Made by a program: the position numbers and the translations under genes. Of a stretch of DNA of 64,000 bases, positions 3,031 through 63,314 are shown piece by piece (position 1 is the first letter of the stretch; each line of letters opens with the position of its first letter). The notes beneath the pieces were generated by a model that saw nothing but the letters and a program-made list of their open reading frames with translations, was not told where the DNA came from and made no database searches. Where the stretch lies: positions 3,188,338-3,252,337 of the forward strand of contig OZ245758.1 in NCBI GenBank assembly GCA_965227405.1, written 5' to 3'. The stretch is from Polyangiales bacterium (GTDB lineage Bacteria; Myxococcota_A; Polyangia; Polyangiales; Houyiibacteriaceae).

Positions 3031-3049
3031 TCTTGGTCTTGGTCTTGGG
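3031..3049. repeat. Microsatellite (TCTTGG)x3
   Basis: tcttggtcttggtcttggg, read directly from the sequence. Confidence 0.8.
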
Positions 3050-3092
3050 AAGACGCTTGCGCCCACGTTCCTCGAATCGCTTCGGGGGAAAA

Positions 3093-3366
3093 GGAAGAGG
3101 AAGAGGAAAGGGCTAGCCGTGGCTGTGCGGGTGGCTCGCTGCTCCAAACGGCCCTTTCCTCTTCCTATTCCTCTTCCCTAGAAGCAGATATCGATAGGTC
3201 CAGCGCTTCGCTTCCCAAGCCGACGAACTGCAAGCGACGCGAAGCAGAGCACGTTCGTTTCCATTCCCTTTCCCATTCCCTTTCCCGTCCAGCAATCAGG
3301 GACCCGCTCACGCGCGGAGAGCCCACCTGCAGCTCGGCGGGAATGGGAAAGGGAAAGGGAATGGAA
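3093..3366. repeat. Two long polypurine/polypyrimidine inverted-repeat hairpins ((GGAA/GAGGAA)n arms) in the metF upstream region
   Basis: Hairpin 1: ggaagaggaagaggaaaggg (3093-3112) pairs with ccctttcctcttcctattcctcttccc (3152-3178). Hairpin 2: ttccattccctttcccattccctttccc (3259-3286) pairs with gggaatgggaaagggaaagggaatggaa (3339-3366). A related element lies at 49142-49217. Confidence 0.85.
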
Positions 3367-3424
3367 AAGTCGGTCCGCGTTGGTCGAACGCTCGAACGGC
3401 TTCGCGGGAAAGGGGAAGAAGGGA

Positions 3425-3754
3425 TCAGCGGCCAAAGCTATGTGACGGCCACTCCGTAGCGGCAACCCCATACAACCCTCCAAGCTCCCGCAAGAATTCG
3501 AAGGTGTATATCCCGCTCGCGTGACCATCTCCCCAGGTCAAGCGCAACGCGTACTGACCCTCTTCTCCCAAGTCTTTGAGTTCGAGGTTCTTCGGCTCCA
3601 CCCAACGCACGGGTCCATGATGACCCTGGCACTCGGCGCAGGGACAAAACCCTCGCAGCAACGCGTGCGGAAGATGCGAGACGACACCGTCATCCCACTC
3701 GATCTCCATCATGCGCGCACCTTCCGGAGCGCGAACTTCAACGGGCTCGGGCAT
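3425..3754 (-). CDS. DUF971 domain protein (gamma-butyrobetaine-hydroxylase N-terminal-like)
   Basis: 109 aa with IEWDDG...CPCAEC...YALRLTWGDGHASGIYTFEFLREL, the DUF971 signature. Its start overlaps the kinase stop (TGATG). Confidence 0.7.
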   Translation of the reverse strand: MPEPVEVRAPEGARMMEIEWDDGVVSHLPHALLRGFCPCAECQGHHGPVRWVEPKNLELKDLGEEGQYALRLTWGDGHASGIYTFEFLRELGGLYGVAATEWPSHSFGR

Positions 3755-5397
3755 CAGTCCATGTCGAAGGCGTCAAACTCACCGACGCCACGAAGAACCA
3801 TTCGAGTCATGGGTGCATCCATGGCTTCTGTCATCGCGGGGGTCATCGCAGGCGCCATCGCTGCAGCGGTCGTGGGTGACATGTTCGGTACCATGGTCGC
3901 TTCCATAGTCACCGGCTCCATCGTCGTCATGCCGACCATGCCGTTGCGCATCCCACGCCCGCGCCAACGGTTGCGCATCTCAGTGGCCATGGTGTCGACC
4001 GGTTCCGGATCAGGAAGTTCACCGTCTGGAAGTTCGCCAACCGGGATTTCAGTCTCAGTCGTCTCCGTTTGCGCGACAGTCTCAACCGTATCGACGGGGT
4101 CGACAGTCTCGGTGGTTTGAGTTTCCCCGGATTGCGCTGGCGGTTCCGCCACGTTCACCGCTTCGGCTGGTGCATCGTCGCCACTCGTGAACGCGACCAC
4201 ACCCCCGACGAGTGCAGCGACGAGCATGACGGCGGCCGCGTACCACTTGGTGTTGTTGCTCTTTGGAGCAACATCCATCGTGATCGGTGTGCCTGTCGTG
4301 CTCGCGACGATCTGCGACTGCGAGAGCGGCGTCCGCTCCATGCTTTGCGAGTCGGTATTGCCGCTGATCGGAGGCAGTGCGTCGAGTTCCTCGTCGTCGC
4401 CCGTCAGCGCCATCTTCAGCCCGGTTTCGAGCTTCCGAAGCGATTCTCCGCCGTTGGCCTGCACGTAGGCGCCGATTTGAACGGCGGTGGGCTTCTCGCC
4501 CGACGCGGCCCGAAGTGCTTGAGCAAACTCGCGACAGGTGGAGTAGCGTTGTTCAGGATCACGCCGCAGCGCTTTCGCCACACAAATCGAAAGCTTGGGC
4601 GAAATCGTCGGACGGACATCCAAGAGCGTGGGAATCGGCTCCTGCGTAATCTTCTGCAACGTGTGAAGCGGGTTCTCCGTCTTGAAGAGACGACGTCCGC
4701 TCAGCGTTTCCCAGGCGACAACACCCAGCGCCCAGATATCGACGCGCCGATCCAGCGGTGCGCCAGTGGCCTGCTCCGGTGCGAAGTAGGCCATCTTGCC
4801 TTTCACCTCACCGGTTTGGGTGTGGGAGCTGCGCTGCATCGCTCGGGCGACACCAAAGTCCAAGATGCGTGTGCGACCTGCGCGGTCGACGAGAATGTTC
4901 TGCGGAGAGACATCGCGGTGCACGATATGGAGCGGGTCCCCCATGGGCGTTGTCGCTTCGTGCGCATCGTGAAGACCCTGCGCGGCTTGCGCGAGAATCT
5001 CTGCTGCGATGGGTGTCTCGACGTGCTTGCCACTCTTGAGCACCTCGCGAAGCAGTCGCGAGAGCGGCACGCCCACCACGAGTTCCATCACCAGGTAGAG
5101 CGAGTCGTCTTCGGCGCGTCCAAGGTCGAGCGTTTGAACAACGTTGGGGCTGCTGATGTTGGCCGCGACGCGTCCTTCGTCGAGGAACATCGTGACGAAG
5201 CGATCATCCTCCGCCAAGGTCGGAAGCATGCGCTTGAGCGCGACGACCTTCTCGAATCCACCTTCACCGAGAATGCGCGCGGCGTACACCTCTGCCATGC
5301 CACCACCAGCGATCCGAAAAAGGGTCTGGTAGCGCCCAAACCGTTGTCGTACAGACGACCCCGTCAACGAGCGTTTAGCGCTGGTGTCGATGCTCAC
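3754..5397 (-). CDS. Membrane Ser/Thr protein kinase with an acidic, Met-rich extracytoplasmic tail
   Basis: Hanks kinase motifs (VALKRM, HRDVSPQNILV, DFGVA, APE), one TM helix (WYAAAVMLVAALVGGVVAF) and a C-terminal low-complexity region with MxxxM-type repeats (MAPAMTPAMTEAMDAPMT). Confidence 0.8.
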   Translation of the reverse strand: MSIDTSAKRSLTGSSVRQRFGRYQTLFRIAGGGMAEVYAARILGEGGFEKVVALKRMLPTLAEDDRFVTMFLDEGRVAANISSPNVVQTLDLGRAEDDSLYLVMELVVGVPLSRLLREVLKSGKHVETPIAAEILAQAAQGLHDAHEATTPMGDPLHIVHRDVSPQNILVDRAGRTRILDFGVARAMQRSSHTQTGEVKGKMAYFAPEQATGAPLDRRVDIWALGVVAWETLSGRRLFKTENPLHTLQKITQEPIPTLLDVRPTISPKLSICVAKALRRDPEQRYSTCREFAQALRAASGEKPTAVQIGAYVQANGGESLRKLETGLKMALTGDDEELDALPPISGNTDSQSMERTPLSQSQIVASTTGTPITMDVAPKSNNTKWYAAAVMLVAALVGGVVAFTSGDDAPAEAVNVAEPPAQSGETQTTETVDPVDTVETVAQTETTETEIPVGELPDGELPDPEPVDTMATEMRNRWRGRGMRNGMVGMTTMEPVTMEATMVPNMSPTTAAAMAPAMTPAMTEAMDAPMTRMVLRGVGEFDAFDMD

Positions 5398-7988: not shown

Positions 7989-8045
7989 GTCTTCCTCGGT
8001 ATCGCGCCGGGCTCCATGGGCCAAAAAAGTGGCAACTTCGTGGAC

Positions 8046-8200
8046 AATTTGAACGCAACTAGCAACTGAGAGCACGGCCCAGAGAACAAACAACACGAAC
8101 CGTCGGAGCGCTCATGTCCGTCTTCGTGCGATCCGTGTTCTGAATCCTCTGCTCCGTGTTCTCAGCTGCTCGTTGCGTGAAAGTCGGCGAAGCTGTTCCG
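8046..8200. repeat. REP/MITE-like intergenic element: inverted pair of an about 30-60-bp unit (AACGCAACTAGNAGCTGAGAGCACGG...) flanked by GTCCGCGAAGCTGTT-type motifs
   Basis: The unit sits in + orientation at 8052-8077 and in - orientation at about 8117-8177. It is about 88% identical to the copy at 23144-23203. The flank motif gtcggcgaagctgtt lies at 8183-8197, and the inverted motif caacttcgtggac at 8033-8045. Confidence 0.8.
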
Positions 8201-8466
8201 CTCTATTCATTAATTTTGGTGGAAGATTCGAAGGCGAAAGACGAAAGAGCGGGGTGGCCGATTATTTTTCGGGTGTCGTGGCTCCGAGGCACCCATGAAA
8301 ATGACAGCTCCCCTTGAGTCTTGCGCCTTCGAAACTTCCACAAAAAAGGAATAAAGCGGAACCGCGCCCGGAACTTCGAAGGTGGAGGTCCGCGAAGCTG
8401 TTGCACTGCAATGCGCAATGACGAAAAGACTTTGTGTCCGGTATCTGTCCGAACGACTCTCTGTTC

Positions 8467-9039
8467 ATGCGAGTTTCTGTCGTCCTTGTATTGCTCCTGT
8501 CGTCGACCGCGTTTGCCGATGACGTACCTCCGCCGCAAGACGACTGCCCTTCGGGCTCGGCCGGAGAAACCGATCACCACGGGCAGTACTGCGCACCCTT
8601 GCGCTGTCGTAACGATGAAGCGTGCAGCGGACGTCGTTACATTCCCGCGGGACGGGTTTGTCGACCTGCTGCGTTTTGCGTCGAGACTCGCCACTATCGA
8701 AGTCACCGTGGGCACGAAGGTGACTACGAGGTGTTCCAAGGACCCTGCGATGCCTCGGGTGCCTGCGAAACCGGAGAGTGTGTCCGCGCAGACTTTTGTG
8801 TGGATGCCGACGACCCGTTGGAGCCAGCCGCCACGGTGACGATGATGTCCACGTCGATGACGTCTGCCTCCATGGAGACGTCTGCTTCCATGGAGCCTTC
8901 GGAAGCATCCGAGACGTCGGCTTCCGCCGAAGGTGAAAGTAGTTGCTCTGCCGGTCACGCGACCGACGGAACATGGCTCGTGTTGCTGTGCTTGGTGTGG
9001 GGTCAGCGCAAGTCGAGGTCGCGCGCTTCGATCGCGTAG
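8467..9039 (+). CDS. Secreted Cys-rich protein with a MYXO-CTERM-like C-terminal sorting tail
   Basis: Signal peptide MRVSVVLVLLLSSTAFADD, a Cys-rich middle, a Ser/Thr/Met/Glu low-complexity linker and a C-terminus ...SCSAGHATDGTWLVLLCLVWGQRKSRSR (Gly/Cys-Ser, then hydrophobic, then basic). Confidence 0.55.
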   Translation: MRVSVVLVLLLSSTAFADDVPPPQDDCPSGSAGETDHHGQYCAPLRCRNDEACSGRRYIPAGRVCRPAAFCVETRHYRSHRGHEGDYEVFQGPCDASGACETGECVRADFCVDADDPLEPAATVTMMSTSMTSASMETSASMEPSEASETSASAEGESSCSAGHATDGTWLVLLCLVWGQRKSRSRASIA

Positions 9040-22663: not shown

Positions 22664-23089
22664 ATGCGCTTTCTGCACTCGATGATCCGCGTCCGCGATC
22701 TGGACGCGGCACTCGAATTCTTCTGCAACCAACTGGGACTCCGCGAAGTTCGTCGGCGTGATCACGAAGGCGGGCGGTTTACGCTCGTCTTCCTGGAAAC
22801 CGGTTCGGATGGCGATGCCGCGCAAATCGAGCTGACCCACAACTGGGACCAAGACGAGCCCTACACCGGTGGGCGCAACTTCGGACATCTCGCGTTTGAG
22901 GTGGAGGACATCTACGCGTTGTGTGAGTCGTTGCAGAAGAGTGGCGTGACGATTCTTCGTCCACCGCGCGATGGTCGAATGGCGTTTGTGCGTTCGCCGG
23001 ATCAGATCAGCGTGGAGCTACTGCAACGGGGCGAAGCCTTGCCGCCGAAGGAGCCCTGGGCGTCGATGCCGTCCACGGGTGAGTGGTAG
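22664..23089 (+). CDS. gloA: Lactoylglutathione lyase (glyoxalase I)
   Basis: 141 aa starting [14 protein letters not shown]..., with the IELTHNW and HLAFEV VOC metal-binding pattern typical of GloA. Confidence 0.75.
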
Positions 23090-23097
23090 CGGTCCGT

Positions 23098-23298
23098 CAT
23101 TGCGCGTTGCGCAATGGCTGTCCGCGAAGCTGTTTGCGCGATGAACGCAACTAGGAGCTGAGAGCACGGAACAGAGGACTCAGAACACGGATCGCACGAA
23201 GACCGACACACGCGATCCGGCGGTCCATGTTGTTAATGTTAATTCTCTGGTCCGTGCTCCCAGTTGCTAGTTGCGTTCAACTCGTCCGCGAAGCTGTT
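23098..23298. repeat. Second copy of the REP/MITE-like element (see 8046-8200), with an 8-bp palindrome and GTCCGCGAAGCTGTT flanks
   Basis: Palindrome cattgcgc-gtt-gcgcaatg (23098-23116). Motif at 23120-23134, + unit at 23144-23203, - unit at 23252-23280, motif again at 23284-23298 and a further copy at 23446-23460. Confidence 0.8.
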
Positions 23299-23474
23299 GC
23301 CCAGCCGAACAAGAGATGCGCATTGCGAAACTTAAACTGGATCTAAAATGAGTTGGCTCGGGTAGGAGACCGGAAAGGAATGTTCTCTGCAGGCTCCGAG
23401 CCTCCACGTCTCCCACTAAAATTCAAATCCAGCTCTGCGCCTCGTGTCCGCGAAGCCGTTGCGCACGCGCCAAC

Positions 23475-24440
23475 TCACGGTCCCGCGTCGAACAGACACG
23501 TCACTTCCTCCGCGTCCATCGAACGATCGTAAATCGCAACGCGATGGACTTGTCCGTCGTAGCCGCGTTCACCACCAAGCTCATCTCCGATCGCGAAGCG
23601 GTATGACCCAGGCGTCCAACCCAGTGTGTTCATCCCACACGGCCAATCCCCGTCCACGACCAAGCCGTTGAAGTACACCCGCGGCTCGCCGAGCGTGCCG
23701 CTAAACACCAACACGATGTGCTTCGGCGGATCGAGCGCTGTAAACACGGCGGGCTCGCTCACTGCAGCGCGTGTCATGTCGACGTCGTTGCAGCGTGTGC
23801 CTTGCTCATTGGTGCCATCGGTCTGAAGCCGGACCACACCGCTTCCCTCGTCGTGTCCGATCGTGAATGCCCGCTCGCTGCTATCGAGCGAAAGCGTCAC
23901 GATTCGTTCCGGTCCAAACTCCTCTTCCTGAACCAGGTCGAGTGCGCGGGTCCAAACCTCGACCGTGAACGACCCCGCGTCCAGCAGTGCGTTCATCAGC
24001 GCATCGCTGTCTTCTTGCGAAGCGGCCAATTGTCCGTTGCGTACTTCCACCAAACTCGCGGCTTCGACAATGGTGACCTCGCCGGTGATGTCGGTGAGTG
24101 GCACATCGGGTTCCGCAGGTGCGCGGTCCACGATCCGTGTCGTGTCGTCACCCTCTTCGAACTCGTAGAGAACAATCGGTGCGTCCGTCGTGCACATCTC
24201 GCCAACATCCGGAACGTCGGGTTGTGCGTCGTTGACGTCAGCATCGTTGACATCTGCAGCGGCATCGGTTGCATCGACGTTTGCGTCGGGTCCGGCGTCT
24301 TCCCCCATTACGCAGTTGCCCGCCAAGCACACTTCGCCTTCGTCGCAGTCGGTGATGATCTCGCATTCAACTGCCGGAAGGTCGTCGCCCCCGCAGGCGA
24401 TGAGCAACATCAAGCCGAGCCAACCACGCAAGGCGATCAC
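23475..24440 (-). CDS. Lipoprotein with a LamG/concanavalin-A-like lectin domain
   Basis: Lipobox LLIACGGDD, a Cys-rich stalk and a C-terminal region (FAIGDELGG...YDGQVHRVAIYDRSMDAEEV) typical of LamG_3 domains. Confidence 0.5.
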   Translation of the reverse strand: MIALRGWLGLMLLIACGGDDLPAVECEIITDCDEGEVCLAGNCVMGEDAGPDANVDATDAAADVNDADVNDAQPDVPDVGEMCTTDAPIVLYEFEEGDDTTRIVDRAPAEPDVPLTDITGEVTIVEAASLVEVRNGQLAASQEDSDALMNALLDAGSFTVEVWTRALDLVQEEEFGPERIVTLSLDSSERAFTIGHDEGSGVVRLQTDGTNEQGTRCNDVDMTRAAVSEPAVFTALDPPKHIVLVFSGTLGEPRVYFNGLVVDGDWPCGMNTLGWTPGSYRFAIGDELGGERGYDGQVHRVAIYDRSMDAEEVTCLFDAGP

Positions 24441-26347: not shown

Positions 26348-27145
26348 GTGGATCTGACGGGCAAGCGCGTCACGATCGCGGGCAAGCTCGCGGGCTATTG
26401 GGCGAAGGGGAACCTCGCCGGTCGGATCAAACAACTGGGCGGTGAGTTGACCGAGTCGTTTGATCGTACGGCCGACATCGTGGTGATCGCGAGCAAGGCG
26501 AAGGGGTTTCGAAAGCGCATCGCGAAGATGAACGCCGTGGAGATCACCGAGCAGCAGCTTGAGGAGATCGTCGCCGAACGTCCGCAACCCAAACCTGCGA
26601 AGCCGCCACCCAAGGCGGACAAGGATTCCTTTCGCAATGCGCTTGTGACGTCTGGTGACGCGGTAGGCCGCCGCGACGCGTTGGTCGAAGCGATCTGCGA
26701 TCACGTTGAGAGGGGCTTCGACGTGATCATGGACGCGTCGCGAGACGCGGTTCGCGCTTTGGATCCCAACGCGGAACCACAAACGCTGCTCGTGTGGATC
26801 GCGTGGTCCGAAGCGTCCGTATTCGTCGTGCCCAAGGACGTGCCCGATTGGCTGAAGCGAGACTTGAAGCTCGTCGACAAGATGGTCGTCTACTACGAGG
26901 TCGGAACCGAGCTGAAGTCGTACGGAGCGGCGATGCGTCTTCTCGTCGCAACGGGGGACGCGCCGCAATGGGTGTGGGACAAGATGCGTGGTGACTTGGA
27001 CGGCTTCGAAGAGTCAGGCCTGAACAGCGTCGAGGACCTTGTCGTGCTTGGTTCACCTCTCGCCGAACACCGGGTTCGGAGCGTCGGGGAACTGAACTTT
27101 CCAATCGACAGGCTCGTGGTGGTGAATGACCACATTCCCTGGTGA
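26348..27145 (+). CDS. BRCT domain-containing protein (hypothetical)
   Basis: N-terminal LTGKRVTIAGKLAGY... BRCT-like fold followed by an uncharacterised region. Start set at GTG 26348 immediately after the slyD stop; the exact start is uncertain. Confidence 0.4.
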   Translation: MDLTGKRVTIAGKLAGYWAKGNLAGRIKQLGGELTESFDRTADIVVIASKAKGFRKRIAKMNAVEITEQQLEEIVAERPQPKPAKPPPKADKDSFRNALVTSGDAVGRRDALVEAICDHVERGFDVIMDASRDAVRALDPNAEPQTLLVWIAWSEASVFVVPKDVPDWLKRDLKLVDKMVVYYEVGTELKSYGAAMRLLVATGDAPQWVWDKMRGDLDGFEESGLNSVEDLVVLGSPLAEHRVRSVGELNFPIDRLVVVNDHIPW

Positions 27146-27266
27146 AAAGAGAACGCTTTTCACGACTGACCAGAGTGTGACCAACGTGGAGACGAGTGGG
27201 GTCTCGCAATCCGTGCAACTTGGGTCGATGGACCCGCCGCGAGCACAGATCGTCGACGTTTTTGTC

Positions 27267-35216: not shown

Positions 35217-36197
35217 ATGCGTTTGGCTCTCACATCTCTCTTTGCATGCGCGCTTATGGCGCTTTCGGGTTGTTGTTCCGACAGCTACTTCTGCGACGAC
35301 ACCGGTTGCTTCTATTGCGATGGCCTGGGTTGTCGTGAAGTCGATCCGCCGGAGCGTCCGACCTGTCGTGGCGATTTCGAGTGCCCCGAAGGAACGATGT
35401 GCACCGACGTGGGTTGCGTCGAAGAGTGCTCGGAAGACTCGGACTGCCCGGATGGCACTGTCTGCCGTGACGCGATGTGTGTCGGCCCGACCGAGCCCGA
35501 TCCCGATCCGCGCCCCGGCACCTGCACGATGAACTCCGATTGCGGCGACGCGAGCCTCGTTTGCCGGGACGGAATGTGTGTTCCCAACGATGTCTCCTGC
35601 GGCGAGCTCGGTTGCAGCTGCGCAGATACCGGAATGTGCTCGGATGGATTTACCTGCCTTGATGGTGAGTGCCGCGCCGACGAAGACGTCTGCCAGTTCA
35701 ACTTCGAGTGCGGTGCCGGCAAGCTTTGTGTCGATGGACGCTGCACCACCGAGTGTGGTCCCGATGCGGGTCCGTGCCCCGAGGGTCAGCAGTGCGACGC
35801 TGGTTTCTGTCGCGACATCCCGCCGACTCCCGGCGAGTGCACGCGCGACGCCGAATGCACCATGGGCCACATCTGTGTCGACAGCAGCTGTGTAGACGGC
35901 TGTGAGCTTGACTCCGATTGCGGCGAAGGACGCTACTGCGCATACGGACGCTGTAAGGTCGACGACCGTCCCACCGACTTCTGTACCAGCGATGCTGACT
36001 GTCGCTTCATCTGTGTCGACGGGGTGTGCCGCACGCCGTGTGACACGAGCGAAGAGTGCGCACGAGTCGACGTTCAGTTCAGCGTGTGTCTCTCGCCCGA
36101 GGCCTACTGCGGAACCACCAACGAAGCCACGAGCGATTGCGCCATCTCGGCCGATTGCGGAAGTGGCGAGGAATGTATCGACGGCATCTGTCGTTGA
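35217..36197 (+). CDS. Cys-rich repeat lipoprotein (Myxococcus-type C-x-D-x-C-x-x-G-x-C repeats)
   Basis: Lipobox ALSGCCSD and at least 10 tandem approximately 25-aa repeats of the form CxxDxDCPxGxxCxDGxC. Confidence 0.65.
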   Translation: MRLALTSLFACALMALSGCCSDSYFCDDTGCFYCDGLGCREVDPPERPTCRGDFECPEGTMCTDVGCVEECSEDSDCPDGTVCRDAMCVGPTEPDPDPRPGTCTMNSDCGDASLVCRDGMCVPNDVSCGELGCSCADTGMCSDGFTCLDGECRADEDVCQFNFECGAGKLCVDGRCTTECGPDAGPCPEGQQCDAGFCRDIPPTPGECTRDAECTMGHICVDSSCVDGCELDSDCGEGRYCAYGRCKVDDRPTDFCTSDADCRFICVDGVCRTPCDTSEECARVDVQFSVCLSPEAYCGTTNEATSDCAISADCGSGEECIDGICR

Positions 36198-36350: not shown

Positions 36351-38228
36351 ATGCGTGTTTGGCTTGGGGTTGCGCTCGCCCTTGCGGTGGCGTGTGGGGA
36401 TGATGACGGTTCGACGGACGCGGGTACCGATTCAGGTGGGTCGGACAGCGGGATGCTGGACGCCACCAGCGACGTTGGAGGCGACGACGCAGGCGATCCC
36501 GACGCAGGCGATCCCGACGCGGGCGATGCAGGTTGTCCCGACGATGACGGCGACGGCGTCTGCAACGATGAAGATCAGTGCATCAACGGTGACGATGCTG
36601 CGGACGCGGACGGTGATGGCGTTGCCGATGCCTGCGACGCGTGTCTTGGGAGCGATGACGCCATGGACGACGATGGCGACACGGTTCCCGATGGCTGTGA
36701 TTGCGACACCAGCGCGGACATGTGCGATGCCAACGCAACCTGTGCGGAGGCGATGACAGGTGTAGAGTGCACTTGCAACGACGGATACATGGGCGACGGT
36801 GCGACGTGTGATCCAGTCGACTGCGGCATGTTGGATCCGCCCGACGACGGTAGCGTCGACGCGGCAGTGACCACGTTCGAGTCGGAGGCAACGTACTCAT
36901 GCGACACGGGATTCACGCTGGCTGGCGAACCCACCCGCACATGCCAGGCAGATGGAACGTGGTCTGGCGATGCGCCGATTTGTTCGTCGATCGATTGCGG
37001 CGCCTTGACTCCTCCGGCTGACGGAATGGTGGACGTGCCATCGACAGGGTTCAGCTCCGTCGCCACCTACACTTGCAACGACGGCTACGTGTTGATGGGC
37101 GATACAACGCGTACCTGTCAGAACGACTCGATGTGGAGTGGTGCCGAGCCCACCTGCATGTTCGTGGACTGCGGTTCCTTGCCACCATTGCCTGAAGGCA
37201 TGGTCACCACCGATCGAACTTCGTTTGGCGGAACGGCGACGTACACGTGCAATCCCGGGTTTACGTTGACTGGCGCACCCACTCGAACGTGTCGTGCAGG
37301 GGGTAGTTGGAGCGGCAGTGCACCGACTTGCGATCCGGTCGACTGCGGTGCACTCACGCCACCCGCGAACGGCGACGTGGTCGCACCGACAACGACGCTG
37401 GGATCGATCGCGAGCTACTTCTGCGACGCCGGATTCATGATGTCGGGCGGGACCGCATCCAGGACCTGCCAAACCGACGGGACGTGGGATGGGACGCCGC
37501 CGATGTGTGTCCCAGAGATCATTGACTGTGGAGCACCCCCTTCGCCGACGAACGGCAGCGTGAGTGCGCCGGACACGACCGCGGGTAACTTTGCGACGTA
37601 CAGTTGCAACTCGGGCTTCCGTCAGTTCACGGGCGAGTATGCGATTTGCCAAGCAGACGGAACGTGGCTTGGTCGTGCACCGGAGTGCTTGCCGCTGCTG
37701 ACGTGCGCGTGTGACCAGTTCGCCGAAGATGAGCGCGTGCAAGCGGCAGTTGCCATGCCGGGCGGGGCTGCGGGCGTCACACAGGGTCAACTCGGAACCG
37801 TGATCGCCGCCAGCACGACGCGTGACCTCATTCAATGGGACGGTTGGACGGGCGGCCACGACGGCAACTGTTCGTTCGCTTCCTGTGGAACGTGCATGGA
37901 CCTGCCCGTCGACCAAGGTCGTTGGTACACCACGTGTGGAGACATCGGTGAATACCGGCTCACGTGTTCATGCGGTGGTATTTGGTATCCCGGAGATCGC
38001 GTCGTCGCTCTCGTCGACAATCCGCGCGGTGCGACTGGCATTCTTCGCGGACGACAGGGGACCGTCGTCGCCGGTGGCGGCGCTTCGGGTGGAACAGACA
38101 TCCTGATCCAATGGGACGCATGGTCCGATGGGCATGACGGGAACTGTTCGTTCTCCGATTGCGGCACGTGTGTCGATAGCGGTGATAGTCGCTGGTACAC
38201 GGATTGCGACGAAATCGGACGTCCGTAA
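36351..38228 (+). CDS. Lipoprotein with TSP3-like Asp repeats, an EGF-like module, five tandem Sushi/CCP (SCR) domains and two copies of a novel approximately 85-aa Cys-containing C-terminal repeat
   Basis: Lipobox LAVACGDDDG. EGF-like CDANATCAEAMTGVECTCNDGYMGDGATC. Five repeats of DCGxLxPPxxGxV...ATYxCxxGFxLxGxxTRTCQxDGTWSGxAPxC (Cys1-4 spacing, GF/GY, W..P.C of Sushi domains). C-terminal repeat LGTVIAASTTRDLIQWDGWTGGHDGNCSF.SCGTC...RWYT.C occurs twice. Confidence 0.7.
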   Translation: MRVWLGVALALAVACGDDDGSTDAGTDSGGSDSGMLDATSDVGGDDAGDPDAGDPDAGDAGCPDDDGDGVCNDEDQCINGDDAADADGDGVADACDACLGSDDAMDDDGDTVPDGCDCDTSADMCDANATCAEAMTGVECTCNDGYMGDGATCDPVDCGMLDPPDDGSVDAAVTTFESEATYSCDTGFTLAGEPTRTCQADGTWSGDAPICSSIDCGALTPPADGMVDVPSTGFSSVATYTCNDGYVLMGDTTRTCQNDSMWSGAEPTCMFVDCGSLPPLPEGMVTTDRTSFGGTATYTCNPGFTLTGAPTRTCRAGGSWSGSAPTCDPVDCGALTPPANGDVVAPTTTLGSIASYFCDAGFMMSGGTASRTCQTDGTWDGTPPMCVPEIIDCGAPPSPTNGSVSAPDTTAGNFATYSCNSGFRQFTGEYAICQADGTWLGRAPECLPLLTCACDQFAEDERVQAAVAMPGGAAGVTQGQLGTVIAASTTRDLIQWDGWTGGHDGNCSFASCGTCMDLPVDQGRWYTTCGDIGEYRLTCSCGGIWYPGDRVVALVDNPRGATGILRGRQGTVVAGGGASGGTDILIQWDAWSDGHDGNCSFSDCGTCVDSGDSRWYTDCDEIGRP

Positions 38229-46957: not shown

Positions 46958-48001
46958 ATGATGCGCAATGTTGTTCTGGTTTTCGGTCTGCTCGTCGCCA
47001 ACGGTGCCGCTGCGCAGACGACACTTACCTACGATCCGCTCTTCGTTTGGTACGAACTCGAGTCGCACTCGAGCAGTCGAAACGGCAGGCCTGTCGACGA
47101 GGGCTACACGATCAGCGGTCGACACCGGATGATGGGGCAAGCACCCGCAGGCAGCTTCTTTCGAGTTGTGGTGCGCGCAGGTCGGCGACGCTTGGCTGAG
47201 ATGCGCTGTCCGACGCAGAACCGCTTCGGAGACAACCCCTTCTCGCATACGCCAACGTGTCACGACCGTGACCAGAAGTTGCGGCACGTGGGTGCGTTGA
47301 CGATCGAGGTGTACTTCGTGGACGGCGCCACAGATCAGGAAGCGTTGCAGGCACGGCACAACGTACGCGTGGCGCGAAAGACGCGGGTTAGGGGTGGCGG
47401 TGAGCGCGATGCACCGCGCTATCACGTGGAGTACGCGACTGAGTTGCACACGGGCGTCTTAGAGGTCGCGCAGCAGGGAACCGCGTATATTCCTGGGTCG
47501 CGTGTGTATGGAGGAGAAGGCCGACTTGCGTTGATTCTGAACGTGAAGCGAGCCGAAGATGCACCGCGCTTGTACGCATCGACGCTGCGATGTTCCGTGG
47601 ACGGTCAGGTGATCGGTGCGGAACGGATCGATCGCGAGGAGCTCAACAGCGTGGCCGTGGTGGAGACGCGCATGGCACGCCGCCAGATGCAGCGAACCGA
47701 CCATCGGTACATTCGCTATCGCTTGGGTCTACCGATCGTGTGGGGTGTGGACGAGCATCGAACCGGTGTGATGCGTCTGCGTGCTGGACAGTGGCAGTGC
47801 GATTGGCGGATTGCGGGAGAGACGTTGCGCAGTTTCGCGTTCACCGTGGACAGCGAACTGAACGTGACCGGCCGAAGCGCGAACCTGCCAAGCCCGTTGC
47901 AACTGGTCGATCTGGAAGTTCCACGGAGAACGCCCTTGGACGCAGCGAACACGCCACGAAATCTGGGTCGCGGAACCGCGTTCTGGGGCTCGGTGCGCTA
48001 A
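46958..48001 (+). CDS. Secreted hypothetical protein
   Basis: Signal peptide MMRNVVLVFGLLVANGAAAQ. No recognisable domain. Confidence 0.45.
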   Translation: MMRNVVLVFGLLVANGAAAQTTLTYDPLFVWYELESHSSSRNGRPVDEGYTISGRHRMMGQAPAGSFFRVVVRAGRRRLAEMRCPTQNRFGDNPFSHTPTCHDRDQKLRHVGALTIEVYFVDGATDQEALQARHNVRVARKTRVRGGGERDAPRYHVEYATELHTGVLEVAQQGTAYIPGSRVYGGEGRLALILNVKRAEDAPRLYASTLRCSVDGQVIGAERIDREELNSVAVVETRMARRQMQRTDHRYIRYRLGLPIVWGVDEHRTGVMRLRAGQWQCDWRIAGETLRSFAFTVDSELNVTGRSANLPSPLQLVDLEVPRRTPLDAANTPRNLGRGTAFWGSVR

Positions 48002-48008
48002 CCGGGTT

Positions 48009-48160
48009 GGTCCGTGCGGGGACGTAGTCCGTACGGACCCGAACCTGCTCTCAACGAGTCGGAATTTGCGAGGGTTTTGGATCGCCGAGTAAATCCACGA
48101 ACAGAACGGGGCGTATTCGGGCAGGTGTGTGTCCGTACGGACTACGTCCCTACACGGACC
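48009..48160. repeat. Large inverted repeat (30-bp arms, 20 bp perfect, each arm containing the 12-bp palindrome GTCCGTACGGAC) between convergent genes
   Basis: Left arm ggtccgtgcggggacgtagtccgtacggac (48009-48038) and right arm gtccgtacggactacgtccctacacggacc (48131-48160), separated by about 90 bp. Confidence 0.8.
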
Positions 48161-48170
48161 ATCTCCGCTA

Positions 48171-49073
48171 CTAGCGTCCGAGTCGACCTAAGAGCTTGGT
48201 GTACGAGCCCAGGAGGTCGCTTCGCAGGGGGCCAGTGCAAGCCTTGTGCAGGTAACGCAGGTCAAGCATCTCCGCACGATGAGGGTCCTTGGTGAGGCGC
48301 TCGATCAGCCGTGTGAAGTCCGCGAGTGCTGACGATCTTTCTCCGGCACGAAGACGGCAATACGCGAGTGCTTCCAACACGATGTCCACGCGCCATGCTC
48401 TCGGACCCTTGAACGTTTCGAGTGGGACGGCGCTATAGGCAGCAGCCGCTTCACTCCAACGTTCTTGATCGTGCAGACAGTGCGCACGAAACAACGCCGC
48501 CCAGCCAAAGTCAGGCTCGATCTGCAACGCACGGTCAAACTCAAGTGCGGCGTCTTCGGTCGTACCAAACTCGTAGTGCCACTTTCCCAGGGCGTACGCG
48601 ATCGATGCGTCGTCGGGAGCGAGCTGCTCAGCGCGTTGCAGATACCGCAGCGCCAACCGCACGAAACGCTTTTGTGTTGCTTCCGCTTGCGCGACAAGCG
48701 CGACGAACTTGGCCGAGATGCCGCGCGAATGCCAAACCACCGCATCGTTTTCGTTCAAGCGAACTGCTGCAGCATAGACGCGGTCGAGAGCATCGGGAGC
48801 GAGTGAACCGAAGGTCGACTCCACAAACATCGCCAGTTGTCGCAACCGTTCTTCCGGCCGCATCTCGATGTGTCCGGTTTGTGCCAGGTACGCATCGGTG
48901 TCGAAGCGCAACATCTCGCGGTCACTTTCGAGTCCGATCTCTGACGCCTGGAGCCAAGACTGGATCTGCTGATAGGCGTCGGTTTCGCTTCGCGTCTTTC
49001 GGTCGTGACGACGTCGAACTTTAGCTCGATCGCGAGCGTCGAACTTACCAGTTAGTACGGCCGAACGAGCCAT
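48171..49073 (-). CDS. TPR repeat protein (cytoplasmic)
   Basis: TPR-like helical repeats (AYALGKWHYEFGTTEDAALEFDRALQIEPDFGWAALFRAHC...). Start set at the internal ATG 49073; the longer ORF would translate the GGAA hairpin as EEEQEEEG. Confidence 0.5.
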   Translation of the reverse strand: MARSAVLTGKFDARDRAKVRRRHDRKTRSETDAYQQIQSWLQASEIGLESDREMLRFDTDAYLAQTGHIEMRPEERLRQLAMFVESTFGSLAPDALDRVYAAAVRLNENDAVVWHSRGISAKFVALVAQAEATQKRFVRLALRYLQRAEQLAPDDASIAYALGKWHYEFGTTEDAALEFDRALQIEPDFGWAALFRAHCLHDQERWSEAAAAYSAVPLETFKGPRAWRVDIVLEALAYCRLRAGERSSALADFTRLIERLTKDPHRAEMLDLRYLHKACTGPLRSDLLGSYTKLLGRLGR

Positions 49074-49141
49074 GAACAACCAGTAACCATCGGTTGGGTC
49101 TTGGGAAGACGCGTCCGCAGGCCTGAGTCGATCGGCCTCTT

Positions 49142-49217
49142 GGGAACAGGAAGAGGAACAGGAATGGGCATGTGGGACGGTGGAAACCGCCCCTTCCTCT
49201 TCCTGTTCCTCTTCCCC
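49142..49217. repeat. GGAA/TTCC polypurine-polypyrimidine inverted-repeat hairpin, related to 3093-3366, in the divergent TPR/ACAD promoter region
   Basis: gggaacaggaagaggaacaggaatggg (49142-49168) pairs with cccttcctcttcctgttcctcttcccc (49191-49217). Confidence 0.8.
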
Positions 49218-49388
49218 TGTTGCAGTGCGAGGGACCTCGGCGCCTGAGTCAGTTGCGGAGCGGCGCGTAGCGTCACGACTCGCAGTCGCGGAACGCGACG
49301 AGAATCGAGGGGGCAAAAGGTTCCATACAGAAGTCTTCCCAGGACCAAATACCAATTGGCTTCGCCTCGATCATGCGGATCATCCCCA

Positions 49389-60552: not shown

Positions 60553-62121
60553 ATGGACCGAGAACTCGCAAAACTCGTCAAAGAAGGAGATGCCGCCGGA
60601 ATCGCTGTGCATCTCGACGGGCTTCCCAAACGCCCACCCATTCACGATTTGTTGTGGTGCGCCTACTTTGCGAACGAGGCGTGCCAGAAGCTTCTGCTTG
60701 AGGTGGCCACCAAAAAGAAGATCACGCTGCCAAAGAAGAAGAATGCGTGGAAGTGGAACGACGCCCATGCCGCGGCACTCAGTGGCGACCCTGCTGCGAT
60801 TGCAAAAGCGGAGAAACGCGGTGCAGATTTTGAAGCCCTTACGCCATTCGGAACCCCGCTGACGATAGCGATTCGGCTCAAGCACTCGGACTTCGTGCGT
60901 GCGCTCTTGGACACGGGCGTCGACACGACGGCCAAGGTCAAGATGGCGCGTATTGGCGGTGTACGCGTCTTCGGCGGAAACATGTTCATGACCGATGCAA
61001 CACCGTTGGGAGTTGCGTTACGTGTCGCGGACGAAGCCACCACCGCAGTTCTTCTCGAGCACATCAAAGTCGAGCCTGATCACTTGGGTGACGCGGTGCA
61101 GGGCGCGAACGAGACCTTGTTGCGCCGAGTGCTCTCAGATCTGGGCGACGCTGCACCGCTCGAACCGAAGTTGTTCTGGAGCGTGCATGACCCGGCGATC
61201 CTTCCTGTCCTGAAGGAGCACGGGTTCGACCTTTCAAACTTGCCCACAGATACAGGGACCTGGGGCGGATCGGTCTGGTCGTGGTGGGGCTATTATCTCA
61301 AGGGCGGAGAGTCGCGCATCGAGTGTTTCAAGGCTCTGTTTGCCACGGGAGTCAAAGGGACAGCCGCAGGCTTGGGCGATGTGATCAAGGCGAACATTCA
61401 AGGGATTGCGTCCATCGAGATGATCGATCTCTTTCTCGACAATGGTGTCGATCTCTCCGACGAGATGGAGTGGAAGACGGAGGGTTGGGACGACGAGAAC
61501 GACTGCGAGATGAAGGCGCGAGGCTCACTCGCGGAGCGAATGCTAAAAAAGCACACGCTCGAGTTAGTTCAGCACGTCCACAGCAAGGGCGCAGAAATTC
61601 GTCCCACGCGTCCGGATCCAACCTGGCGAGACGCCGACGAAAAGAAGGAATGGTTGGAGAGCCTTGGGCTGATCAAGGAGCTCGATGCTTCGGCGTTTCC
61701 GTTCCTCGACTCGCCAAGCAACGATGAAGTGAAGAAGTTCCTGGCCACGGAAGGCGGGATCTACGGACTCAAGCTCGGCATGAGTCGCGACGCGACCAAG
61801 GGTTGGGATCTCGACGGCGGCGTGATTTCGGTCGACTTCGAGAAGGGCAAGATCGTCTACGTGTACCGTCAGTACTACGAGCCACCGAATGGAACGTTCG
61901 ATGCAATGCAAGAGGCGCTCGTGGCTGTGCATGGCGAACCCAAGAAGAAGGGCAAGAAGCTTGCCTGGGCGGTGCCCGGCGGCTGGATCTCGCTTCGTAA
62001 AGACTTCAACGATGCGGGGCTCACGGTGAGCGTCGACATGCAGTCCGATGAGCCGCCGGAAGACGACTACGACGACGACTACGACGACGACTACGACGAA
62101 GACTACGAAGACGACTACTAA
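60553..62121 (+). CDS. Ankyrin-repeat-like protein with a poly-acidic (DDYDDDY)n tail
   Basis: ANK-like helical repeats (TPLTIAIRLKHSDFVRALLDTGVDTT; ATPLGVALRVADEATTAVLLEH). C-terminus DDYDDDYDDDYDEDYEDDY. Lys-rich and apparently lower GC. Confidence 0.45.
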   Translation: MDRELAKLVKEGDAAGIAVHLDGLPKRPPIHDLLWCAYFANEACQKLLLEVATKKKITLPKKKNAWKWNDAHAAALSGDPAAIAKAEKRGADFEALTPFGTPLTIAIRLKHSDFVRALLDTGVDTTAKVKMARIGGVRVFGGNMFMTDATPLGVALRVADEATTAVLLEHIKVEPDHLGDAVQGANETLLRRVLSDLGDAAPLEPKLFWSVHDPAILPVLKEHGFDLSNLPTDTGTWGGSVWSWWGYYLKGGESRIECFKALFATGVKGTAAGLGDVIKANIQGIASIEMIDLFLDNGVDLSDEMEWKTEGWDDENDCEMKARGSLAERMLKKHTLELVQHVHSKGAEIRPTRPDPTWRDADEKKEWLESLGLIKELDASAFPFLDSPSNDEVKKFLATEGGIYGLKLGMSRDATKGWDLDGGVISVDFEKGKIVYVYRQYYEPPNGTFDAMQEALVAVHGEPKKKGKKLAWAVPGGWISLRKDFNDAGLTVSVDMQSDEPPEDDYDDDYDDDYDEDYEDDY

Positions 62122-62123
62122 TC

Positions 62124-63206
62124 ATGCGCATCGCTCTACTCGGTTGGTTCGTTGTCTTGGGATGCGGGGCGAAGTCGGCGCTGGAGGTCGAGCCAACCGA
62201 AGCGCGCGATGCCACGAGCGACGCTTCAACCGATACCTCAAGCGATGCACCGTTCGATGCATCGATCGACGTCTCTCTTTTCGATGTGCGTCCCGACATC
62301 GCGTTCGATGCCGGGGACGATCCAGCGCGTCCTCCTCGTCGTTGCCGTGAACGACCGCAACCGGTTGATGTGCTTCTGGTTCTCGACAGTAGCGGTTCGA
62401 TGCTGCACGACATTCCAGCGATTGGAGTCGAGGTGCCCGAGCTTCTTCGAAACCTGGTTCAACCGCCTGATCTCGACGGCGACGGGCGTGCCGATTGGGC
62501 GGCTGTAGAGGATTTCCATTTTGCGGTTGCGCTGACCGCAGACGATGGAGAGTTCAATCGTCAAGGAGATCGGGAGCGACCGCGTTGTCTGCCCGGGATT
62601 GAACCCTACGAACCTTGGCAAAGCTATCAGCGAGGCGACGATCTCGATTCGGTGTTGGAGGCGGCATCGTGCACCACTGCACACACCGGACTGGGTCGGG
62701 AAGATCTGATCTCGGTGGCGCTGCAATCGTTGCTTCCGCCCACATCCAGCTATCCCTACCGTCAGTCCGAAGAGCTCTACGCAGAACAAAGCGGATTTCT
62801 GCGCGACGAGAGTGTGTTGGTGATCCTCTTTCTCACCGACGAAGACGACGATTCGGAGTGCACGGGGTTACCCACGGACATGTGCATTGAGCGATGCCGG
62901 GAGTTTCGTGGCGAACGAACCTGCGAGCCTTCACTTGCGACCATGCCTGCACTGATCGATGGGTTTCGAGAACTTGGATCGCGTGAGGTCGTGATGGCTG
63001 GTGTCCTTGGAGTCGCCGAAGACGAAACCGACCCCACGCGAGCACTTGGATGCATGTTGGCCGACAGAGAGGCTGAACCTGCGCCGCGTATGGCGGAACT
63101 TCTCAGCTCCTACGAAGGGGCGCTGTATTCCATCTGCCAGCGAGACTATCGCCGCATTGCACGGGATATCGCAGGACGGGTCGGTGTGCTCGCCTGCGAT
63201 GAGTAG
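62124..63206 (+). CDS. Lipoprotein with a VWA-like domain
   Basis: Lipobox VVLGCGAKS, Asp/Ser-rich linker and LLVLDSSGSM (DxSxS MIDAS). Confidence 0.5.
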   Translation: MRIALLGWFVVLGCGAKSALEVEPTEARDATSDASTDTSSDAPFDASIDVSLFDVRPDIAFDAGDDPARPPRRCRERPQPVDVLLVLDSSGSMLHDIPAIGVEVPELLRNLVQPPDLDGDGRADWAAVEDFHFAVALTADDGEFNRQGDRERPRCLPGIEPYEPWQSYQRGDDLDSVLEAASCTTAHTGLGREDLISVALQSLLPPTSSYPYRQSEELYAEQSGFLRDESVLVILFLTDEDDDSECTGLPTDMCIERCREFRGERTCEPSLATMPALIDGFRELGSREVVMAGVLGVAEDETDPTRALGCMLADREAEPAPRMAELLSSYEGALYSICQRDYRRIARDIAGRVGVLACDE

Positions 63207-63314
63207 CCGTCAGGCGAAGTACGAGTGGAGGAGCCGTCAGGCGAACTACGAGTGGAGGAGCCGTCAGGCGAACTACGAGTGGAGGAGCCGTCAGGCGAAG
63301 TACGAGTGGAGAGC
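63207..63314. repeat. Tandem repeat, 27 bp x 4 (CCGTCAGGCGAA[G/C]TACGAGTGGAGGAG)
   Basis: Four near-identical head-to-tail copies that fill the gap between the convergent stop codons at 63206 and 63314. Confidence 0.9.

Follow-up and report, generated by a model that had tools for sequence, protein, structure and literature searches.

Strain-variable composites of hairpin modules and short repeats in two intergenic gaps of a Polyangiales genome

REPINs, hairpin-forming pairs of REPs (palindromic sequences that are repetitive and extragenic), and arrays of REPs are mobilised by REP-associated tyrosine transposases (RAYTs) in Pseudomonas fluorescens SBW25 and E. coli; REPINs cluster via insertion into or beside existing REPINs, and REP arrays of one orientation occur at fixed spacing (PMC3116915). 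Here we compare with these and other small repeat systems two intergenic blocks, A and B, from a 64,000-nt stretch of DNA of a Polyangiales bacterium (GenBank assembly GCA_965227405.1, contig OZ245758.1, positions 3,188,338 to 3,252,337 of the forward strand), which we call the window. Each block holds one copy of a foldback, el1, together with copies of a 15-mer, GTCCGCGAAGCTGTT. We think it probable that the blocks are composite non-coding, non-autonomous repeat modules inserted into intergenic DNA, in the broad class of miniature inverted-repeat transposable elements (MITEs), REPINs and bacterial interspersed mosaic elements (BIMEs). The repeat family is apparently undescribed, of a familiar general kind and restricted to the species.

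With REPINs the blocks share extragenic foldbacks of ~70-170 nt that have inverted conserved ends round a pairing spacer and no coding capacity, and with REPINs and REP arrays they share clustering, arrays of a short motif in one orientation and at fixed spacing, and presence or absence between close strains. Unlike in REPINs, the short motif here is no obvious palindrome, the el1 sequence between motifs is conserved, and motif orientation differs between A and B; we noticed no resemblance to the REP families known to us, a judgement made without direct sequence comparison. Bacterial MITEs (such as Correia elements, ERIC/IRU and further foldback deletion derivatives of IS) are like el1 in a length of ~130 bp, terminal inverted repeats of 26-33 nt with extended ends TG...CA, the lack of an open reading frame (ORF), intergenic position, insertion polymorphism (here of the blocks) and the ability to carry or displace promoters upstream of genes. 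Target-site duplication is a feature of classical MITEs, whereas none is seen at the el1 copies or the block boundaries, and the polymorphic unit here is a whole 398-bp composite rather than el1 alone. No parent insertion sequence with el1's ends lies in the window. The blocks also recall E. coli BIMEs, as intergenic mosaics where a conserved short motif takes turns with further segments, conserved or variable, but BIME REPs are palindromes with short linkers, whereas here a short motif accompanies long hairpin modules, and lineage and sequences are unrelated. Palindrome-associated transposable elements (PATEs) derived from IS200/IS605 agree with the blocks in lacking target-site duplication, in hairpin-rich ends and in the plausibility of an enzyme acting in trans; they differ in having subterminal hairpins and a fixed left-flank target of 4-5 nt, whereas el1 has true terminal inverted repeats, and no clear common target is seen between the left flank of A (…ACACAA) and that of B (…TGCGCA). 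The initial annotation of this DNA had likened the element to REP/BIME or MITE families, and the likeness holds for the terminal inverted repeats and the polymorphism; it fails for target-site duplication, and the 15-mer offers no clear palindrome.

The blocks are discrete insertions, absent from relatives and polymorphic among strains, and not ancient conserved intergenic DNA. For comparison we used DNA of two syntenic relatives (L006 from ENA; L007-L012 from Logan) with gene order kept at ~74% protein identity, together with contigs from Logan sample SRR23272279 (L003/L013 and L014) and from other strains (L004 and L015). At locus A in the relatives, the conserved GGTATCGCG...CCAAAAAAGTGGC is followed by just 29-48 nt before the ATG of a gene for a Cys-rich protein, as against 433 nt in the window; at locus B in L006 two stop codons stand 1 nt apart, as against 385 nt in the window. 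None of the repeat motifs and no long intergenic hairpin occurs in the ~46 kb of syntenic DNA examined from the two relatives; the initial annotation had proposed to look for the unit in related Myxococcota. Among strains, L013 is 98.5% identical to the window in DNA over 19.7 kb, with two large indels only, both on hairpin blocks. At locus A it has GGG instead of 8034-8431 (398 bp), its flanks align base for base, and the palindromic motif that ends block A (8409-8423) is not in its empty site. The second indel falls on window 3179-3448, with a different, polypurine-armed hairpin and a 15-mer-like sequence. At locus B, contig L015 (~91% identical) reads ...CCGTCATTGCGCA-TC-GCGCACGCGTCAAC joined directly to the stop codon of a laminin-G gene; it keeps the end palindrome and the right flank and misses the array of 15-mers, el1 and a unique spacer, seg3. 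That array is carried at least partly by L003/L013, L014 and L004. Bases of the target are replaced at both loci, GGG at A and TC or ATC at B (2-3 bases). Presence and absence within a species is the behaviour of mobile or recently inserted DNA, and three separate strain-variable blocks have the core of the 15-mer in common.

Block A is a recent arrival, and locus B was not its source. Relative L007 has the same string, GTGGCGGG, as the empty site in L013, so the empty state of locus A is most simply ancestral. Block A thus post-dates the 1.5% strain split, while its el1 is 16% off the copy at B, which means that B was not the donor. The 16% divergence and the uneven decay of block A's three 15-mers (0, 1 and 4 mismatches) indicate that the block arrived as an already-old composite from another donor, and imply that at least one further copy exists or existed, in this genome or in a donor genome. 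The same evidence bears on the notion that we are looking at the remnant of a local duplication, or at chance similarity, with no family behind it. In favour of that notion are the count of just two known el1 copies, 15 kb apart, and the lack of anything related in the public collections scanned. However, chance is excluded by the repeat statistics (below), B was not the source of A, and the 15-mer core is common to three separate strain-variable blocks; we regard it as highly improbable. The initial annotation had likewise favoured a repeat element over a local remnant, and the empty orthologous sites of two relatives and the differences among strains bear it out.

In window coordinates, the parts of locus A are:

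8034-8431, minus strand (element orientation): block A, a 398-bp composite insertion, delimited by the empty site in L013
6843-7988, minus strand: LysM/peptidase M74 gene, left neighbour of block A in a divergent pair
8467-9039, plus strand: Cys-rich secreted-protein gene, right neighbour of block A in the divergent pair
8033-8047, minus strand: degenerate 15-mer GTCCACGAAGTTGCC, of which the first 12 nt are a terminus of block A
8052-8179, minus strand: el1 copy A, a foldback of 128 nt whose terminal inverted repeats measure 26 nt
8183-8197, plus strand: 15-mer GTCGGCGAAGCTGTT, 1 mismatch
8192-8365, no strand assigned: el2, a long hairpin of ~170 nt unrelated to el1, recognised by inverted repeats and a fold z of -5.25
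8388-8406, plus strand: 15-mer GTCCGCGAAGCTGTT with a TTGCAC tail (19-mer form), the 15-mer part being 8388-8402
8409-8423, minus strand: palindromic end motif CGTCATTGCGCATTG, within block A and 8 nt short of the opposite terminus

Those of locus B are:

23090-23474, plus strand: block B, the entire 385-bp gap between convergent genes
22664-23089, plus strand: GloA-like gene, left neighbour of block B
23475-24440, minus strand: laminin-G gene, right neighbour of block B
23095-23116, plus strand: palindromic end motif CGTCATTGCGC(GTTGCGC)AATG, which includes a 7-nt tandem duplication; the motif is also in L015
23120-23134, plus strand: 15-mer, exact
23144-23277, plus strand: el1 copy B, a 134-nt foldback whose palindromy reaches 23137-23284
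23284-23298, plus strand: 15-mer, exact
23299-23445, plus strand: seg3, a unique 147-nt spacer, not a significant hairpin
23446-23464, plus strand: 15-mer GTCCGCGAAGCCGTT followed by GCGC, the right-hand terminus of the array that is missing in L015

The sole module that is demonstrably repeated is el1 (128-134 bp, with 26-33 nt terminal inverted repeats). Its inverted-repeat unit, AACGCAACTAGSAGCTGAGAGCACGG, has four matches in the window at up to 3 mismatches, namely 8052-8077 (plus), 8154-8179 (minus), 23144-23169 (plus) and 23252-23277 (minus), where shuffled sequences lead one to expect 0.00, and past this 26-nt core pattern the arms extend to a length of 33-40 nt. The two el1 copies lie in opposite orientations and are 84.2% identical over 133 nt when one is reverse-complemented; the similarity of 8033-8178 to the reverse complement 23296-23145 is 83.6% over 152 nt and spans el1, a 6-nt linker and the next 15-mer. 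The units, orientations, 15-mers and coordinates of the initial annotation are thus all present, far beyond chance, and the 60-nt identity between the loci that it put at ~88% is ~90% by our own count from the alignment. Its layout of copy A was real but incomplete, in that the two arms are the ends of a single 128-nt foldback, and its account of the element as a whole omitted both arms and the three 15-mers at B, el2 and the end palindrome CGTCATTGCGCAWTG. It was right in calling the repeats extragenic, non-coding, hairpin-forming composites. Folded as single-stranded DNA, the inverted pair gives el1 z = -5.2 to -5.4 at A and -7.1 to -7.6 at B (-5.2 to -7.6 in all), and the whole of block A folds with z = -8.4. 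Stops interrupt five of the six frames of each el1 copy, the one open frame having just ~43 codons, and the gene tables call no ORF over el1. Differences between the arms, read off the alignment, are one-sided and not compensatory, which gives the copies the look of decaying DNA and not of selected RNA. Neither el2 nor seg3 is a diverged el1 copy left by tandem duplication, as global alignment against shuffles finds no similarity, and no second copy of el2 was found. A retron msr/msd region was also considered for the hairpins and rejected: the flanking genes code for LysM/M74, the Cys-rich protein, GloA and laminin-G, no reverse-transcriptase gene is adjacent, and there is no Rfam match.

The ends of el1, ACGCAAC...GTTGCGT, resemble the RYYYAAC/GTTRRRY core sites of integrons, and one might ask whether el1 is an attC site or the blocks an attC cluster without an integrase. 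At 6 of 7 positions each end agrees with its core consensus, GTTGCG comes back where modules join, and the 128-134 nt of el1 fall within the size range of attC sites. But the el1 stem has symmetric one-on-one mismatches only and no extrahelical bases, each locus holds a single el1 with no gene cassettes between copies, and no tyrosine recombinase or integrase domain is encoded by 30 ORFs of the window. We give this idea hardly any credence.

What joins otherwise unrelated modules is the 15-mer. It starts at 8183, 8388, 23120, 23284 and 23446, always on the plus strand and with 0-1 mismatch, and is confined to the two gaps; by our estimate, chance would give ~0.006 such matches per window at up to 1 mismatch. 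A probable further member of the family is

3395-3409, minus strand: TCCCGCGAAGCCGTT, inside variable block 3179-3448, with an exact 13-mer common to 23448-23460

and a 13-nt exact match is again rare by chance (~0.002 per window, our estimate). The 15-mer is part of a motif of ~19 nt, GTCCGCGAAGCTGTTGCGC, whose tail is less conserved; this motif stands 6 nt past el1, also punctuates the otherwise unrelated el2 and seg3, and probably punctuates a polypurine hairpin at 3258-3367 in like manner. At locus A, el2 sits between the two plus-strand 15-mers, and at locus B the spacing of the 15-mers is regular (164 and 162 bp). Once the blocks are brought into one orientation, el1 is followed by a 15-mer, plus relative to el1, at both loci. 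The palindromic motif CGTCATTGCGCAWTG lies at the outer end of both blocks, at 8409-8423 (minus) and 23095-23116 (plus), so that with A read on the minus strand and B on the plus strand both open with the palindrome, as CGTCATTGCGCAATG, and close with a 15-mer. The blocks start 5-8 nt before CGTCATTGCGCAWTG and end at the exact 3' end of a 15-mer. We also entertained a 7-bp TTGCGCA target duplication at locus B and rejected it, the fit being loose at B and absent at A; a simpler account of the heptamer is that it belongs to the 19-nt motif as its tail. The 7-nt tandem duplication in the locus B end motif (TTGCGCG TTGCGCA, window 23103-23109) is absent from L004 764-781, while the empty site of L015 carries a similar imperfect pair, TTGCGCA TCGCGCA; the duplication could be a footprint or simple slippage.

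The core of the 15-mer, GCGAAGC, matches a sequence known as a very stable DNA mini-hairpin. It is unchanged in six copies (the five good ones and 3395-3409), and the degenerate copy at 8033-8047 reads ACGAAGT instead, altered on both sides with the 2-bp stem preserved; the odds of such a change by chance are ~0.04 on a rough estimate, which makes it weak evidence. Enrichment of GCGAAGC in the blocks was considered and dropped, since the heptamer is common all over this genome, its 37 copies lying within the range of 7-mers of like composition. Beyond the 2-bp GCGAAGC mini-stem, no longer palindrome is visible in the 15/19-mer.

These features invite the question of whether the blocks belong to a true REPIN-RAYT system, in which the 15/19-mer would be the REP, the inverted pair at A a REPIN, B a tandem REP array, and a single-copy RAYT would lie elsewhere in the genome. 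At locus A the 15-mers around el1 are inverted, and 8033-8047 (minus) pairs with 8183-8197 (plus) and lengthens the el1 stem, as a REPIN would have it; the extragenic location, lack of target-site duplication, clustering and strain polymorphism fit as well, as do the invariance of GCGAAGC in six copies and the stem-keeping change in the degenerate one. The definition of REPINs, their clusters and same-orientation REP arrays have been described (PMC3116915), and so has the lower conservation of REPIN spacers relative to the flanking REPs (PMC3116915), whereas el1, which would be the spacer, is well conserved. Moreover, the 15-mer is not an imperfect palindrome of 20-40 nt, the 15-mers around el1 at locus B are in direct orientation, and no RAYT is found among 30 ORFs of the window. 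On balance we consider this explanation unlikely.

Searches for a known family, a known enzyme or a known signal gave little. No part of the window matches Rfam 15 at gathering score, in keeping with the annotators' view that the element is uncharacterised; the sole Rfam match at E <=1, to EBER2 at 17 bits, is meaningless. We scanned species-representative genomes and JGI metagenomes with the degenerate inverted repeat (20 specified bases). The window's own four matches were not returned, so the source genome is not in the species-representative collection; what came back were isolated single matches only, two in the species-representative genomes and one in the JGI metagenomes, the last of which (L005) lies within what looks like a coding sequence and has no second arm of the inverted repeat close by. 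In collections of phage, plasmid and viral contigs neither the inverted repeat nor the el1 core has a match. A 17-nt form of the motif has 16 isolated single matches in them, none with el1 near, about the number that we estimate for chance. A chimeric six-frame translation of both loci, compared with proteins for spurious ORFs over other copies, found nothing at E <=10. No Y1/HUH domain occurs in the 30 window ORFs or the neighbouring gene tables, and no promoter-like or terminator-like signals stand above background at the loci.

This last result also bears on a reading without mobility, namely that the blocks are fast-evolving intergenic DNA gained through break repair, recombination or horizontal exchange, in which a host protein binds the 15/19-mer and the hairpins serve as transcript-end, stability or insulator elements. 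Target bases are replaced without duplication, as such a reading would have it. Divergence beside the locus B array is mosaic, with 0-2 mismatches per 100 nt adjoining it and 5-13 further off, which points to recombination between strains. Near-perfect 15-mers amid unrelated sequence fit selection on a site, and their regular spacing at B (164 and 162 bp) is also in its favour. But the loci show no terminator-like or promoter-like signals beyond chance, and the same modules lie between divergent genes at A and between convergent genes at B, which argues against one promoter-specific or terminator-specific role. Relatives keep the same flanking genes around empty sites, which leaves no conserved function tied to these positions, and the near-identical L013 lives without block A. 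We find this reading doubtful, if worth keeping in mind.

Several observations nevertheless weigh against inserted repeat modules, the explanation that we prefer. The 15-mers that flank el1 are inverted at A and direct at B, which leaves no single definable transposition unit, and seg3, at z = +1.18, is no hairpin. Only two el1 copies were seen, ~15 kb apart in the 64-kb window, and no further one turned up in ~30 kb of other-strain DNA or ~46 kb of relatives' DNA. Transposase and recombinase domains are absent from the 30 window ORFs and from the gene tables of the fetched contigs, and no direct repeat flanks el1 at A or B or either block at its boundaries. Replacement of 2-3 target bases also fits capture of DNA at a repaired break.

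If the blocks are inserted modules, we picture their growth as follows. Modules would accumulate via insertion beside or into earlier modules, the 15/19-mer and the TTGCGC-containing ends would be the recognised sequences, whole composites would be able to move as one unit, and movement would rely on an enzyme encoded elsewhere in the genome. As a conjecture, that enzyme would be a single-strand-DNA transposase of the HUH/Y1 type (IS200/IS605- or RAYT-like) rather than a DDE enzyme; what favours this type is that target-site duplication is lacking, that target bases were replaced and that single-strand hairpins dominate the structure. We also raise, tentatively and as a rather unlikely possibility, that the ~19-nt motif GTCCGCGAAGCTGTTGCGC and the TTGCGC-containing palindromic ends form the site at which a recombination or transposition system of this Myxococcota lineage, so far overlooked, would act. 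Such a system might string unrelated hairpin "cassettes" into arrays and move whole arrays without target duplication, as a lineage-specific analogue of REPIN/RAYT or attC with a different enzyme. Should the 19-nt motif be the site of a new recombination system, the interest of these blocks rises; otherwise they are an ordinary feature of a bacterial genome.

Block A lies upstream of both of its neighbours, 45 nt from the LysM start codon and 35 nt from that of the Cys-rich gene. In the strain with the empty site these start codons are just 83 nt apart, so at least one promoter must have been shifted or exchanged when the block went in, and block A offers a natural test case for how such elements alter regulation. 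Directly upstream of the LysM/M74 start, 7998-8033 (GGTATCGCG...CCAAAAAAGTGGC) is conserved in three genomes (L006 21835-21872, L007 16128-16166) at ~74% protein identity. It may be a leader or regulatory element. The insertion point of block A is the exact edge of the conserved stretch.

Were the family multi-copy, it would probably break assemblies, would supply a marker with which to type strains and would be, to our knowledge, the first system of small non-autonomous repeats in this Myxococcota lineage. Logan contigs end in or beside hairpins in four cases from two samples. In SRR23272279 the ends lie inside the el1 inverted repeat (23169), in seg3 (23396) and in another hairpin (~48028), and a contig of SRR23272290 starts inside a copy of the right arm of that last hairpin. 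The breaks hint at repeats, but we rejected them as proof of multi-copy status: the contigs of SRR23272279 are 94.5-99.7% identical to the window, the sample may hold more than one strain, and a mixture of strains could explain the breaks.

At the empty locus B of L006, the 1-nt junction is followed by CAGAGCACGG (5178-5190), which agrees over 9 nt with the el1 inverted repeat at its inner end (GAGAGCACGG); this overlap is probably chance. In L015 an arm of a second hairpin family adjoins the palindrome of locus B, at roughly the position that the GloA stop codon has in the window. This family has polypurine/polypyrimidine arms (GGAAGAGGAAGAGGAAAGGGC or GGGAATGGGAAAGGG) and occurs at window 3079-3185, 3258-3367 and 49141-49215, at L013 19395-19485 and at L015 2229-2258; window 3179-3448, with one such hairpin inside, has 56 nt in its place in L013. 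A 73-nt direct repeat that starts GGTCTTGGGAAGACGC (3041-3113 and 49097-49169, 75% identical) runs into a polypurine hairpin at each site, a few tens of nt upstream of apparent minus-strand starts, the MTHFR ATG at 2977 and an unannotated "cat" at ~49072. The hairpin at which contig L016 ends is 172 bp long (47999-48170), with 50-nt arms containing GTCCGTACGGAC; the contig stops within its left arm. In SRR23272290 (L017 1-30) the right arm of this hairpin lies ~35 nt upstream of the acyl-CoA dehydrogenase ATG (window 49370), and window 48216-49366 thus appears to be missing from that strain.

Other differences lie away from the hairpins. L014 has ~2.4 kb with three to four genes, one with HEAT repeats (L014 1586-4022), against ~0.47 kb at window 26698-27164, and its identity to the window is 99.7% on one side of this segment and 94.5% on the other, a jump that suggests a recombination mosaic. 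A 1601-aa alpha-2-macroglobulin-like protein encoded nearby has its best named relatives, at 40-46% identity, under the labels Myxococcota or Sandaracinus sp. Two tandem repeats are coding: 62059-62118, with a 12-nt period, encodes the DDY-rich C-terminus of an ankyrin-repeat protein, and 63201-63308 has a 27-nt period and lies near 63.2 kb, where the L017 alignment ends. Finally, 36351-38228 and 35217-36197 encode secreted proteins with animal-type domains, among them five Sushi/CCP repeats, EGF, a hormone-receptor domain and a Dickkopf-like Cys-rich domain.

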